DNA from: Eledone cirrhosa
Lineage: Eukaryota
Length of the DNA stretch: 64,000 nt
Reading direction: 5' to 3'
Assembly: GCA_964016885.1 (NCBI GenBank)
Contig: CAXHJY010000035.1
Coordinates: forward strand, 5,676-69,675
Part shown: piece after piece, positions 853-57,370 of the stretch
How the letters are laid out: each line of letters opens with the position of its first letter
Numbering within the stretch: the first letter of the stretch is position 1
Made by a program: the position numbers and the translations under genes
The notes under the pieces: model-generated
The model's input: only the letters and a program-made list of their open reading frames with translations
What the model was told of the DNA's origin: nothing
Database searches by the model: none

Positions 853-980
853 CTACGAATATATATATATATATATACATATATACATACATATAAGGTA
901 CTTGAATCTTCAAATACTACCACTACAGGAATTGAAGATTCAAGTACCTTAGCGGTATGTCGCATAATCAATCTCTTATA

Positions 981-1043
981 TATTTTATCTGATGAAAACG
1001 TAGTGAAACACCATTGTACCTTTGAAATATGTATAATAAAATA
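981..1043 (+). ncRNA. Type I hammerhead ribozyme, family B (in element 896-1095)
   Basis: TATTTTAT-CTGATGA-[stem II, degenerate]-GAAA-TATGTA-TA-ATAAAATA. Stem [17 protein letters not shown] is perfect. Confidence 0.7.
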
Positions 1044-1155
1044 TGTACTTTGGTTATGAGAATATTTCTCATTTATTAATATTTTGAATAATATTATATA
1101 TATATATATATCAATGATATTAAATAAATGGAAACTATATTTATAAAACCATATT

Positions 1156-1216
1156 TATTCTATTATATATATTTCAAGGGTACCAAAACTTTGGTACGCT
1201 CTCATCAGATAAAATA
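1156..1216 (-). ncRNA. Type I hammerhead ribozyme, family B
   Basis: Minus strand: TATTTTAT-CTGATGA-GAGCGTACCAAAGTTTTGGTACCCTT-GAAA-TATATA-TA-ATAGAATA. Confidence 0.85.
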
Positions 1217-3404
1217 CAAAGTTTGTTTTATAAATATTGACATATCCAAAAAGGAAATCTTAACGGATCAAGTTTTTCCGGCTCAATTGGAACACTCGTC
1301 GTTGTAACCGCATTCGCGGTTCAGGTTCTTCGCGGATTTTTCTTTTCGTCATATATGTCTGTGAATTTTGATTCAGTTTGTATTATTAGTTTTATTATTA
1401 ATATTATCTGTTTATTTTTATTTTTGTGTGTTCGCCTTCTCCAATCTTCTAATAGTTTTCTATCAAGATATGTGGAGCTGTAGTTATATATATATTCATA
1501 CATATACAACACATGTACACATATATATACATACAGACAGGCAGACAAATATATATTTTTCCGTGTATGATTGTGTGTTTATATATATATATATATATAT
1601 ATATATATATATATATATATATATATATATATATATATATATATATATGTATATACATATATATATATATGTATATATACATAGAGGTATATATTTATAT
1701 ATATATATATATATATATATATATATATATATATATGTATATACATATATATATATATGTATATATACATAGAGGTATATATTTATATATATATATATAT
1801 ATATATATATATATATATATATATATATATATATATATATATATATATATGTATATACATATATATATATAAATATATATATACACGTTTATATTTATGC
1901 ATATATGTGGATTTTAGTCTTCAAATTTATTATTATTACTATATATATATATATATATATATATATATATATATATATATATATGTGTGTGTGTGTGTGT
2001 GTTTGTGTGTGTGTATATATGTATACATATATATATATACATTTATATATATATATATATTTTTATGCTTTGGGAGGGTCATGTTGCCAATAACGAAATA
2101 TATATATATATACGCTTATGTTTTATCTATATATGTCTAACTGTCTAACTCTTCGTAATTCCGATATCTCTTCGATACTTCATCTACACACACACATACA
2201 CACACACACACACACACACACACACACACACATATATATGTGTGTGTATATATACACACATATACTTACACGCATATTTCCTTTGTTATCGAATTCATTT
2301 TTATATAATTTCATTTATATAACAATGCATTAAGACATATTTATATAACTATATAACTATATATATATGTGTGTGTGTCCGTGTATATACATATATATAC
2401 ATATATACGTATATGTTTCTTTTCGCTTTCTCCAGTAAAACTTTTCGAATTAACCAGACATCGTAACAAGCTGAAGGCGAATAGAAAGTTGGAAAAATGA
2501 GATTTTTCTCCTCACCATATTATTTCATTTATCATTAATTTGTAGAAAATATATATACATATACATACATAGAGACAAACAGAAAGAGATATATATATAT
2601 ATATATATTTATATATATATTTATATATATATATATATATATATATATTTATATATATATTTATATATATATATATATATATATATATATATATATATAT
2701 ATATATATATATGTGTGTATCTTTCTGTTTGTCTCTATGTATGTATATGTATATATATATACACACACGCATACACCCGCCTTTATATAAATATATATAT
2801 ACATTTATGTATATATATATATATATATATATATGTGTGTGTATATATATATATATATATATATATGTGTGTGTGTGTGTGTGTGTGTGTGTATACATAC
2901 ATATTTATATATATATATATATATATATTTGTATGTATCTGTATGGACATATAAACGCATATATTTGTGTGTATATATATATATATATATATATATATAT
3001 ATATATATATATATATATATATTATTCTCTAATATTCTTTATATAATAAAAGAGATATATATATATATATATATATATATACAGACACACACACACATAC
3101 ATATACACTCACACAAACACTCACAGACAAAGTGGTGGTGGGGAGGAATACAATCTCCAAGAGAGATAGTGAAAGATATTGTTTTTTCAGAGGAAGAAAT
3201 AAAAACGCCAACGGTTGAGATGGGAATGAGATAAAGTTTTAAAACATAAATTTCCTGTTGAAATTAAGGTGAGACTTTGTTAACCAATTCATTGTTCAGC
3301 CGCTCATTGTTTTTCAAACATACTACCTATGATTTTGCAATCATTTTAAAGCTGATCTGTGAGACGTAGCTTAACCTAAGTTCATATATATAATTACAAG
3401 AAAG

Positions 3405-3836
3405 GTTTTTATTTAGATATTGGTTTCTTATATAGGCACAACGCCAGCAATTTTGGGGGAAGGGAAAGTCGATTAAATCGACCCCAGTGCGTGACTGGTG
3501 TCACGCATTGGGTCACGCACGGGGTCGGTAAAATAAAGTACCAGTCACGCACTGGGGTCGATTTAATCGCCCCCCCCCCCCCACAAAAAAAAAAAAACTG
3601 CTGGCCTTCTGCCCATATAAGGTTGACTTTGGCTTTCATCCTTACGGGGTCGATAAAATAAAGTACCAGTAATGTACTGGGTATTTGCTGGCCTTGTGCC
3701 TAACGTAGAAACAATTATTTTATCTGAGTTCAAATCCCGCCGAGGTTAACTTTGCCTGTCATCCTTACGGGGTCGATAAAATAAAGTACCAGTAATGTAC
3801 TGGGTAATTGCTGGCCTTGTGCCTAACGTAGAAACA
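3405..3836 (+). mobile_element. Cluster of tRNA-derived SINE fragments (Octopus OK-like)
   Basis: B-box GAGTTCAAATCCCG followed by CCGAGGTTAACTTTGCCTTTCATCCTTACGGGGTCGATAAAATAAAGTACCAG, repeated. The first fragment is inverted. Confidence 0.75.
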
Positions 3837-4449
3837 ATTTTTTTTTTTTTTTTTCAAATTTTTGGTTGTCAAAATTATGGTGCATCTTCGGTGCCGGGAA
3901 ATACGGTAGCTCTCTTTCTAAAATGGACTGTTACTTTGAATATCGATCTCGAACACACGATAAGATGATGTCGACTTCAGCCGGATTTTAACACGGAGCA
4001 CAGAAAGTCAGAACGAATTTAACCATAAAATATTTTTATCCGACGTTTCAACGGGATATTTCGCCGCCATTGCGTCACTCGTCAGTTTCTATAGACAAAA
4101 GAGAGAGATTATGTCGCCTATTGATACTTAACTGAGAAGAGCAATGATAGATTTCTGTTATCGATCTCTTCCCCTCCCTCTCTCGTCTTTTAACGGACCT
4201 TCTTATATATTTATACATACATACATACATACATACATACATACATATATATATATATATATATATATATATATATATATATAATATCACTGCTTGCTAC
4301 TGTTGAATATGTTTATCGTTGTTAATATTCACTGAGCGATAGATCGATAAATCGATATATTCAATGATTGAATGAAATGATTCGCTATTTTATTGACTTG
4401 TTTCAATCGGTTGCTCGGTTGCTTGACTGGTTTTCGTTGGTTTATGTCC

Positions 4450-55103: not shown

Positions 55104-55955
55104 TCTATATATATAAAACTGTGGTTGTCTGTCTGTCTATCGATTTTTGGCACACACCTCCTCTTAGAATCTCTCACGGAATTGCACCGAAATTGCTATA
55201 CTTGTACATTGAGCCCTAGTGAAGACATCGGAAAAAAAAAATTTCAAATTGACCCACCCTATGTGACGAAATCGAATATAATGTATCGATTTTTGAGCGT
55301 AAGTTATCAGTTATTTCCTTTTGTTCTGTTTACATTGAGCGTCTTACGTAAAAAATTACGGCTTTCTCAGCGTTTAAAAAATATTGACCTGCAAAATTCA
55401 TCAGTTCGAACACTAAGCTTCCGTTTTGCTTCATTTCCATTTAAAAGCATTTTAAAACAATATTTTTACTTGAAAACAAGTCTATTTAAAGACTACGTAA
55501 AACAAGCAAATATTTCGTCGTTAGGCGTGCAGACAGACAGTCGTGCAGAGAGGTGATATAGGCGTGCAGACAGACAGTCGTGCAGAGAGGTGATATAGGC
55601 GTGCAGACAGACAGTCGTGCAGAGAGGTGATATAGGCGTGCAGACAGACATAACTGATAATTTGGTTACGCTAATGTTTTTCTCTGCGTTGCAGTGTTTA
55701 CATTTTCGATCTTTGTTAATAAATAACCAGTGCAGTTTCTATCCCCACCATCCTCTTTTGTTATAACATTCGGGTTATCGTTATGTTTTCTTAACTTCAT
55801 AAGGCATATTGTTGGTTGAGGGAATATTAATCAAAAACACCACATGCAAGTCTGCACAGTAGACACTACAGTTTTTAAGCCAAAAAAGAAACTTAACATT
55901 GTAACTTTAACACAGCTACTGAGCGACCCCGAGCAACGCCGGGCTTTACTGCTAG
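55104..55955 (+). mobile_element. Non-autonomous Helitron inserted into a family B element
   Basis: A|TCTATATATATAAAACTG...CCCGAGCAACGCCGGG..CTAG|T; internal 37 bp repeat x3.4 (55522-55650). Confidence 0.85.
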
Positions 55956-55982
55956 TTTATTTATAAAACTGCTTATATATTG

Positions 55983-56048
55983 TATTTTATCTGAGGAAGG
56001 CATGCCATATTTTTAATATGGTATCCCTGAAATATCTATAATGAAATA
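55983..56048 (+). ncRNA. Type I hammerhead ribozyme, family B
   Basis: TATTTTAT-CTGAGGA-AGGCATGCCATAT..ATATGGTATCCCT-GAAA-TATCTA-TA-ATGAAATA. Confidence 0.85.
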
Positions 56049-56798
56049 GATATGGTTTTATAAATATAGTTTCCATTTGTTTAATATCGTATATATATTT
56101 ATATATATATATATATATATATATATATATATATATATATATATATATATATATATATATATATATATATATATATATATATATAGTTATATATATATAT
56201 ATATATATAGTTATATATATAGTTATATATATATATATATATATATAGTTATATATATATATATATATATATATATATATATATATATATATATATATAT
56301 ATATATTGTCTCAAATTTCGAATTCACCGTCAAAACGGGGGTTACCTCCCTTGGAGAAAACCACGTGTCTATAGCGAAATTTACTACTAGAACACACCCG
56401 CTGAGGCTATAGAACGCAAAACTTGTTGAAGTAAATCCTGCAAGCGGAATTAGTCGATCTCGGATTTACAGAAACCTAGCGTGAATGTTGTATGTTATAT
56501 GTGATGTATATCGTATGCTATACGATATGCGTTATGTGTTGCATTCGGTCTCCGCGCGATGGTCCAGGTCAGTCAAAAATCTTTTCCTGGGTCCAGTCTT
56601 TTTCGTTGCTATGGCAATGCGGCTGGACTGCCGATATCTATATTTGATTTGCAAAGCTGTCTAAACGTATTGTTATAACTCTGGGGTATTATTCTCCATC
56701 GAGTGCTAAAGCTACATTCCGAATTCGCATTCGTTAGCTTAGCCGCAGCCTAAAGCTTCGTTAATGCTGTACTAAAATTTGTATATATATATATATAT

Positions 56799-57008
56799 AT
56801 AACGAAGGAAATGTGGTAAGGAACCAGGTGGACCATAACGCACCAAAGTACTCAATACTTAGGGTAGTAGAGTGGGTAATAGGAACGAGTAGGACCCCGA
56901 CGGCTGAGCTCAAGCTGTTTCGACGGCTAATTCTGGACTAAATATTTAGTCCAGAATTAGCCGTCGAAACGGCTTGAGCTCAGCCGTCGGGGTCCTACTC
57001 GTTCCTAT
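56799..57008 (-). mobile_element. Family C fold-back element
   Basis: Perfect centre CTGGACTAAATATTTAGTCCAG. Confidence 0.85.
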
Positions 57009-57019
57009 ATATATATATA

Positions 57020-57370
57020 TGTAAAAGTTCTATTTAAATTGTTGGGATACAACAAGCAAATATTTTTATAACTGATATAAAGCACTCAACAAATATTTGG
57101 AGTAAAAATACGATATTAACAAATAGAAACTATATTTATAAAACCATATTTATTTCATTATACATATTTCAAGGACACCAAGTTAAATTATGGAGCTTCC
57201 AACAGAAATGGTTGCATTTTTTAAGGGTATGTCAATATTTATTTATAAAACTGATCTATATTATATTTTGTCTGATGAAAGCACACCATAATTTAACTTG
57301 GTACCCTTGAAATATGTATAATGAAATAAATATGGTTTTATAAATATAGTTTCTATTTGTTAATATCGTA
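57020..57370. mobile_element. Family B head-to-head inverted element; HHR at 57264-57328 (+)
   Basis: The minus arm stops at the base of stem II; the plus arm has a complete CTGATGA..GAAA-TATGTA-TA. Confidence 0.8.

Follow-up and report, generated by a model that had tools for sequence, protein, structure and literature searches.

Hammerhead ribozymes of Penelope-like elements and non-coding retrozymes in a TA-rich stretch of the Eledone cirrhosa genome

A 64,000-nucleotide stretch of the Eledone cirrhosa genome (contig CAXHJY010000035.1 of assembly GCA_964016885.1, positions 5,676 to 69,675, forward strand; hereafter the window) was analysed for type I hammerhead ribozymes lying beside (TA)n microsatellites, following an earlier note made from the letters alone. 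The closest described systems are the Hydra clade of Penelope-like elements (PLEs), the minimal PLE hammerheads, the non-LTR (long terminal repeat) retrozymes of animals and the Naiad PLEs.

Hydra-clade PLEs carry a canonical hammerhead near the 3′ end and prefer (TA)n in nearly all families (Craig et al., 2021; PMC8557442). The elements traced from the window share with them one open reading frame (ORF) in which a reverse transcriptase (RT) is followed at the C-terminus by an endonuclease of the GIY-YIG type, the DKT, CxCX5C, CxxC and CxH motifs, and an anatomy of 3′-proximal hammerhead, insertion into (TA)n and truncation at the 5′ end, with partial tandems, inverted copies and tails. They differ in that a single window holds three or more coding families, copies number in the tens of thousands, pseudo-long terminal repeats (pLTRs) form clear pairs, units measure 3.9-4.8 kb, and RWR stands where Hydra has RWK. 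In the supplement of the same paper, Hydra-1_Obim of Octopus bimaculoides is listed with (TA)n preference and an annotated hammerhead ribozyme (HHR); it measures 2507 bp, is listed without pLTR, and its hammerhead sequence differs from those described here. Six short motifs from the window families were absent from that supplement.

Family labels below (989, 1208, 18142 and so on) are window positions inside the named folds, and L-numbers denote loci taken from the same genome. The minimal PLE hammerheads (Cervera and de la Pena, 2014; PMC4209133) share with those described here a palindromic or absent stem III, a U3-A8 core variant, an extra base ahead of stem II (here in 13916 and 30700), and occurrence mostly as single motifs from truncated PLEs, with close opposite-strand pairs and many families per genome. 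Several families here depart from them by long stems II or true hairpin stems III, and the published counts (~9,000 in Xenopus tropicalis, 4,000 in coelacanth) compare with at least 59,434 for one lineage here. For these hammerheads the same paper reports a dimer logic, an activity that is low in vitro, and occurrence as single copies of truncated elements (PMC4209133).

Animal non-LTR retrozymes (Cervera and de la Pena, 2020; PMC7229834; Li et al., preprint 10.64898/2026.07.22.740005) resemble two families of the window, with 312-bp and 427-bp units, in being non-coding, low in GC and tandem, with one type I hammerhead per unit; the axolotl HHR_Amex2 has a U.U at the stem II base, as do these two families (PMC7229834). 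The likeness is limited to 2 of 24 folds, and the copies described here differ in being TA-flanked with inverted 5′ copies, as in PLEs. More than 6,000 retrozyme motifs in 16 families are reported in coral, ~5,000 in mussel and 126,247 in axolotl (PMC7229834; review PMC7761336), whose genome measures 28.21 Gb; retrozymes are viewed as PLE derivatives (preprint 10.64898/2026.07.22.740005). Naiad PLEs (PMC8557442) share (TA)n preference, inverted and tandem anatomy and occurrence in octopods, some having half a hammerhead core; their endonuclease is N-terminal and they have no canonical hammerhead, whereas here the endonuclease motifs of the ORFs are C-terminal and the hammerheads complete, which sets the present elements apart from Naiads. 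For cephalopods, PLEs of 190 families are reported to make up 6.83% of an octopus genome (PMC13282606 supplement; the main text is silent on ribozymes), and 235 hammerheads were counted in giant squid by an Rfam-based method (PMC6962438).

As a whole, the window is best explained as a TA-rich landing zone for many PLE families and their non-coding dependents, to which we assign a probability of about 0.82. Judged from sequence, the carriers of the hammerheads appear to be mostly truncated Hydra-type PLEs where a parent was found, plus a minority of true retrozymes.

Hammerhead folds and their TA flanks

The 32 CTGANGA words of the window were inspected one by one in context and CCGANGA variants were added, giving 24 complete type I folds between 977 and 57328. 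Each holds the core CUGANGA...GAAA...UH in register with three helices and an open stem I. Eight of the 32 CTGANGA sites and several CCGANGA sites were discarded as chance matches or as short or long interspersed nuclear element (SINE or LINE) sequence; five CTGANGA sites belong to a half-core family described in the last section. A first pairing descriptor recovered 19 folds (island-wise dinucleotide shuffles: mean 0.03, maximum 1, n=100; reversed sequence: 0). The relaxed descriptor, which was tuned on this window to let in five folds spotted by eye, recovered 24 (shuffles: mean 0.01, maximum 1, n=100). Five decoy cores gave no match in the window or in a 400-kb sample of the genome (forty 10-kb regions at evenly spaced chosen positions on 22 large contigs, small contigs left out).

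The folds and the elements that carry them are as follows; cluster 1 is the largest family.

977..1047, + strand: hammerhead, H17 at 1035, in fragment 896-1094; clusters with 24747; motif of the lineage of the Hydra pLTR hammerhead, only ~70% identical to ORF-flanking copies, no coding parent found.
1156..1216, - strand: hammerhead, Hydra-PLE cluster 1, in element 1112-1374; 82-83% identity to ORF-flanking pLTR copies.
5755..5814, + strand: hammerhead with U.U at the stem II base and a palindrome one base off.
6289..6345, - strand: hammerhead of the 18142/18515 family, in fold-back insertion 6277-6471, stem III a hairpin.
11271..11331, + strand: hammerhead, Hydra-PLE cluster 1.
13887..13918, - strand: minimal hammerhead lacking a real stem III and with an extra base ahead of stem II; lies at the 3′ end of an element (~13798-14500) with 2518 candidate places in the genome.
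15961..16947, + strand: non-coding retrozyme insertion, hammerhead 16641-16681; partial tandem of the 427-bp unit (tandem part 16257-16947, inverted 5′ copy 15961-16213).
17220..17338, + strand: hammerhead whose stem II measures 94 nt, C at position 4; another copy was seen in L206.
17567..17632, - strand: hammerhead, Hydra-PLE cluster 1, in element 17526-17738; 94-95% identical to the ORF-flanking pLTRs of L150 and L123.
18136..18186, + strand: hammerhead in element 17860-18269, with 1733 candidate places in the genome; opposite its inverted copy, a TA tract between them.
18471..18521, - strand: inverted copy of the 18142 hammerhead, in element 18388-18654.
22209..22744, + strand: non-coding retrozyme insertion, hammerhead 22567-22609; 1.3 units of the 312-bp repeat (repeat part 22330-22744, inverted 5′ copy 22209-22344).
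24141..24185, - strand: hammerhead, second Hydra-type PLE family (24180), in element 24102-24419, with an inverted fragment at 24468-24534; direct pLTR pair around an RT/GIY-YIG ORF in L203.
24739..24805, + strand: hammerhead, cluster of 989; coding parent not found.
28003..28068, + strand: hammerhead, Hydra-PLE cluster 1; 88-89% identity to ORF-flanking copies.
28999..29069, - strand: hammerhead, inverted arm of the perfect fold-back insertion 28969-29288.
29188..29258, + strand: hammerhead, direct arm of the same insertion.
30669..30703, - strand: minimal hammerhead with C at position 4.
45893..45970, - strand: hammerhead of the third Hydra-type PLE family (45959), stem III a hairpin, C at position 4; inverted fragment 45491-45630.
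48558..48623, - strand: hammerhead, Hydra-PLE cluster 1, inverted arm of insertion 48431-48814.
48708..48773, + strand: hammerhead, Hydra-PLE cluster 1, direct arm of insertion 48431-48814.
49165..49242, + strand: hammerhead, family of 45959.
55983..56048, + strand: hammerhead, Hydra-PLE cluster 1; 93% identity to ORF-flanking copies.
57264..57328, + strand: hammerhead, Hydra-PLE cluster 1; in L031 and L156, copies with 98% identity lie downstream of ORFs; insertion 57021-57368 consists of a tail, an inverted piece and the direct 3′ end.

The earlier note had counted about 27 complete folds in about 13 families. The folds themselves proved real, their frequency lying far above that in shuffled sequence (24 against 0.01), and the count came down to 24; the clusters number 11, 12 or 14 at 75, 80 or 90% identity, close to the families proposed, and the three singletons named (5755, 17220, 30669) were all recovered. 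The statement that most non-SINE islands carry a hammerhead was too broad: 22 of 60 TA-bounded non-SINE segments do so or, by an alternative count, 22 of 84 islands plus 6 truncated fragments. The Rfam scan that the note recommended gave no hammerhead match that reached the gathering score, either in the window or in six related loci. No hammerhead stood among the 150 matches listed of 513 found by E-value in the window, a list dominated by microRNA models on simple repeats; simple repeat makes up about a quarter of the window.

Nor does the core vary almost only at N7, as had been claimed. N7 is T, A, G or C, and in addition position 4 is C in 4 of 24 folds. At its base, stem II is closed by a pair in 11 folds and has a mismatch in another 11, while in 2 an extra base precedes it; at H17, 22 folds have A and 2 have C. 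Stem III is an exact palindrome in ten folds, a G.U palindrome in five, one base off in three, near-palindromic in one and a true hairpin in five. The proposal that stems stay paired while their sequence changes was borne out in a 23-sequence alignment, in which both sides change in 13 of 18 pairs and 94.9% of cells pair, a level reached by 0 of 500 shuffles (slid controls pair 34-57%). RNAalifold recovered stem II only, with compensatory changes in five of its six pairs. This covariation is supportive, not independent, and partly circular, because the alignment rows were picked by a pairing descriptor.

The hammerheads sit against (TA)n, as the earlier note had described: (TA)5 or longer was found within 200 nt 3′ of the cleavage site in 23 of 24 window folds, compared with 35% of random unmasked positions, and TA lay within 200 nt downstream of 24 of the 30 folds of the 400-kb sample, compared with 15%. 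Other dinucleotide repeats downstream were not enriched in the window (4/24 versus 15%). Over the 40 sampled regions, hammerhead count correlated with TA content (rho 0.43, p 0.006). These data show an association of the folds with TA, not targeting.

Coding parents and non-coding retrozymes

Among genome copies of segment 57190-57370 the 3′ end is fixed and the 5′ end ragged, and an inverted copy often stands ahead, an arrangement that matches the PLE anatomy given by Craig et al. (PMC8557442). Among the 26 oriented copies (30 loci, 4 unoriented), 18 run into TA repeats and 8 into a common tail. One copy of the largest family extends into a broken RT and endonuclease frame, and this RT, used as a genome query, gave 32,812 candidate places; among 150 scored, many lay in open frames of 500-816 aa, and nine of ten RT loci taken whole had frames of 738-816 aa. 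In L150, L153 and L203, a direct pLTR pair with a hammerhead in both repeats encloses an ORF, the pLTRs of L150 and L153 being 77-93% identical to window copies. The PLE RT/GIY-YIG ORFs with matching 3′ ends that the earlier note had suggested looking for are thus present in the genome; the window itself gave no match to a Hydra-type ORF.

RT and C-terminal GIY-YIG follow each other in a single ORF (742-aa frames, YRDD at ~352, YVG at 635) with the motifs RWR, DKT, YRDD, CxCX5C, Y[IV]G, CxxC and CxH. DKT stands in place of DKG, and RWR is found in the copies of this genome, with RWK in the majority line of an 80-protein alignment. The CxCX5C linker, together with CxxC and CxH around a conserved E and N, is present in L147, L150, L203 and L084; the CCHH motif is missing, no conserved Cys pair being seen by eye inside the GIY-YIG core among the invariant columns of the same alignment. 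Hammerhead-bearing pLTRs, a partial tandem, an inverted copy and a tail agree with the Hydra clade, as does (TA)n insertion, taken as association only. Atlas look-alikes at 0.96-0.98 carried HTH_animal, GIY-YIG or RVT_1 on 13-99% of members, and the sole eukaryote-named homolog of the retroelement protein was from Argonauta hians (39% identity). The L084 ORF resembles the Hydra-1_Obim protein, by eye only.

In three families (cluster 1, 45959/49176 and 24180), which account for 11 of the 24 folds, the 3′ end flanks or follows a coding ORF elsewhere in the genome; since their 3′ ends are shared with ORF-bearing copies, these 11 folds are read as 5′-truncated copies of autonomous elements. For the 45959 family, a partial tandem was found in L084 and an ORF end lies 1.0-1.3 kb upstream of 99%-identical copies in L165-L167. 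All three families depart from the pattern of a non-coding tandem unit, their repeats flanking or following kilobase ORFs.

Two other families match non-LTR retrozymes in sequence (short tandem units, a type I hammerhead in each, non-coding, low GC). In the 22573 family, 312-bp units with a hammerhead in each are joined head-to-tail into arrays, which are 99% identical and occur on several contigs; the L200 array has at least 6 units, the complete ones differing by 0-2 bases, and the longest stop-free frame of the unit is 59 aa at a GC content of 35%. A search of sequencing runs with this family returned no RNA dataset among the matches listed. For the 16646 family, 2 of 14 loci show tandems of 425-428 bp (three units of 427-428 bp in L182, units of 425-426 bp in L179), the longest frame of the 427-bp trimer being 69 aa; a direct pair of its copies 2.8 kb apart in L187 was set aside as two insertions, not a coding element. 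Both retrozyme insertions of the window have TA flanks and an inverted 5′ copy, and for this reason a PLE enzyme probably moved both families in trans.

The steps behind the TA-rich landing zone may be put together from known PLE biology and from the fixed 3′ ends that abut TA. The PLE endonuclease would nick at (TA)n and the RT would copy the RNA from its 3′ end. An early RT stop, often with an inverted second copy, would leave most insertions as the 100-400-bp 3′ stubs that are observed; these retain the hammerhead owing to its position 20-200 nt from the 3′ end. The hammerheads would probably cut multimeric transcripts, mostly as dimers via the palindromic stem III, and the minority families with 312-bp and 427-bp units, which are true non-LTR retrozymes, would use a PLE enzyme.

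Hammerheads with a U3-A8 core, a variant earlier described for schistosome PLEs (PMC4209133), were also seen in the genome, at L078:7083, L096:5892 (-), L096:662 (-), L167:841 (-) and L191:418, some of them flanking Hydra-type ORFs. The sole U3-A8 match of the window (10972) was not accepted, and the matches in L100 (29/38) were dropped as AT-rich satellite. L078:2-1288 (-) holds RT fragments of a non-Hydra retroelement type, so that other clades are present in the genome.

Copy number and alternative explanations

The 400-kb sample contained 30 folds (shuffles: 0-2 per 400 kb). This density of 75 per Mb gives ~2.2 × 10⁵ folds in the 3.0-Gb genome (bootstrap 1.3-3.3 × 10⁵), which has ~30 large contigs. 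In the window the density is 375 per Mb, five times that of the sample, and the TA content is 2.8 times as high. An exact pattern for one lineage matched the genome 59,434 times, against 2 for the reversed control, a count that includes inverted duplicates and whose pattern does not include pairing. The same pattern matched the sample 5 times where 7.9 were expected, so the extrapolation from the sample is not inflated; scaling 59,434 by 30/5 gives ~3.5 × 10⁵. The total is at least 59,434 hammerheads and probably over 1 × 10⁵, and this copy number might be the part that specialists do not expect. In 1.02 Mb of genome sequence enriched for these families, 36 clusters were distinguished, plus the U3-A8 core families. 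No octopod hammerhead census and no octopod retrozyme was found in searches of an open-access library (subscription papers, Repbase and bioRxiv supplements lying outside the searches). The earlier note's suggestion of novelty for octopods thus holds, within those searches, for the density, but not for a TA-preferring hammerhead PLE as such, which was known from Hydra-1_Obim (PMC8557442).

Several results weigh against a landing zone filled mainly by Hydra-type PLEs. Sequence searches against Pfam and the PDB did not recognise the PLE ORF, and the hammerhead-to-hammerhead distances of 3857, 4234 and 4823 bp (elements of 3.9-4.8 kb) exceed the "<3 kb" tendency of Hydra elements. Three of the assigned folds (1208, 11279, 28011) are linked by 82-89% identity only, with no copy of their own beside an ORF, and a direct pair of the 28011 subfamily in L205 has no PLE ORF between its members, being separate insertions in a host gene region. 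Eleven of the 24 folds (989, 24747, 29061, 29196, 5760, 6336, 18142, 18515, 13916, 17223, 30700) have no demonstrated parent: no ORF link was seen among the 37-39 copies of the 18142 family examined, nothing was found for the 13916 family (2 loci) or the 24747 family (1 locus), and the genome search with the 29196 family gave no candidates, an empty output that is uninformative. The monomer folds are marginal, with z-scores of +0.9 to -1.3, 12 of 12 folded being no stabler than shuffles.

The earlier note had taken the elements for non-coding, TA-targeting retrozymes mobilised in trans. This stands for the 312-bp and 427-bp families, to which 2 of the 24 folds were assigned, and could extend to some of the 11 folds without an assigned parent, for example to the 6336/18142/18515 family, which has a U.U-closed stem II as in the retrozyme families, shares upstream sequence of up to ~640 nt and showed no ORF link. 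For most families it is improbable: 11 of 24 folds fall in three families with coding members, the 18142 family has two same-strand copies in 1 of 18 loci only, and the 989, 24747 and 29196 motifs are similar to the Hydra pLTR hammerhead. The association with TA might also arise without endonuclease targeting, if TA grew from the 3′ ends of the elements or if insertions survived only in TA-rich, gene-poor DNA. Either process would produce the correlation between hammerheads and TA, and target-site duplications are unreadable inside microsatellites; we regard it as unlikely, since in the copies that keep the common tail (8/26) the pLTR end is not followed directly by TA, dinucleotide repeats other than TA show no downstream enrichment in the window, and almost every Hydra family is reported to prefer (TA)n (PMC8557442).

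A further reading concerns activity. The folds may be inherited hammerhead shapes with poor or no cleavage, kept for ribonucleoprotein assembly or template handling, or decaying, as the marginal folding energies, the non-canonical stem II base in 13 of 24 folds, the C at position 4 in 4 of 24 and the low in vitro activity of PLE hammerheads (PMC4209133) would allow. We consider this rather doubtful, because the core, the UH site and the palindromy of stem III are preserved across 36 clusters with otherwise unrelated stems, with compensatory changes, and the U.U-closed axolotl hammerhead does cleave, better as a dimer (PMC7229834). A chance origin of the motifs within AT-rich inverted repeats, or an artefact of the assembly, could be suspected from the small contig, its many fold-back structures and the lack of any Rfam score; it is refuted by the shuffles, the empty decoy cores, the 2 reversed matches against 59,434 and the copies on many chromosomes.

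With truncated PLEs and a minority of retrozymes as the preferred reading, a bolder extension is possible but tentative, somewhat short of an even chance: a load of hammerheads above that of any animal in the sources consulted (~2-3.5 × 10⁵ folds, 75-120 per Mb against ~4.5 in axolotl), in dozens of families with non-standard cores missed by Rfam (C at position 4, U3-A8, U.U-closed stem II), together with an amplifying 312-nt retrozyme that yields abundant circular RNA and is moved by a Hydra-type enzyme. If this were true, the intact-looking Hydra-type ORFs would make TA-targeted PLE transposition testable. Little of the mechanism is new: PLE hammerheads, the TA preference of the Hydra clade and animal retrozymes have all been published. 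The value lies in a census and a resource: at least 59,434 hammerheads indicate the extent missed by Rfam-level annotation, and the role of PLE hammerheads and the choice of (TA)n by the endonuclease could be studied on the many natural variants, the young retrozyme arrays and the Hydra-type ORFs, which are uninterrupted.

Other repeats of the window

The half-core family (window positions 136 (+), 21744 (+), 46273 (-), 49995 (+) and 57476 (-); also L059, L060, L061, L067 and L076) has a conserved CUGAUGA and no downstream GAAA, is TA-flanked and forms 614-624-bp tandems, with 1632 candidate places at 98-99% identity. It recalls the octopus Naiads annotated "HHR_half_core" (PMC8557442). A type II hammerhead reading fits in part, the exact register being found only in the youngest subfamily, with U16.1 lost elsewhere and a weak stem II; on account of this restricted fit and of chance type II matches, the family was left out of the hammerhead count.

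An abundant palindromic fold-back family (4940-5136, 7754-7938, 21458-21632, 28252-28331, 48839-49030, 56802-57005) contains a GAAA-tetraloop-UU segment resembling the 3′ half of a hammerhead, and nearly all copies break and fold back at one point just upstream of it. It was rejected as a hammerhead, no copy being seen with both core halves and stem I; the break point may mark RT fold-back at an RNA hairpin. The fold-back insertion 28384-28807 has tRNA-like sequence on both arms (Rfam tRNA, 44.5 and 42.4 bits) and PLE-like anatomy, with no hammerhead. At 18779-20450, a 591-bp tandem unit with a long inverted segment, near-identical copies and TA flanks, in which no hammerhead was found, is a candidate ribozyme-less or other-ribozyme retroelement. 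A 611-bp repeat (241-858, 9057-9490, 21789-22138, 29758-30368, 30818-31065, 31258-31868) has fixed ends and copies 93-98% identical, lying between TA or TACA tracts, and has no hammerhead.

Clusters of a SINE-like repeat, a putative SINE as in the earlier note, are often head-to-tail and lie at 3417-3837, 12196-13767, 22929-23523, 48009-48377, 53860-54560 and 59097-59270. Positions 33690-43190 are occupied by ~9.5 kb of CCAA-type simple repeat (34001-42999 not read directly), and tandem arrays at 46590-47960, 53230-53842 and 59900-60400 have units of ~59 bp, 18 bp and ~64 bp, respectively.

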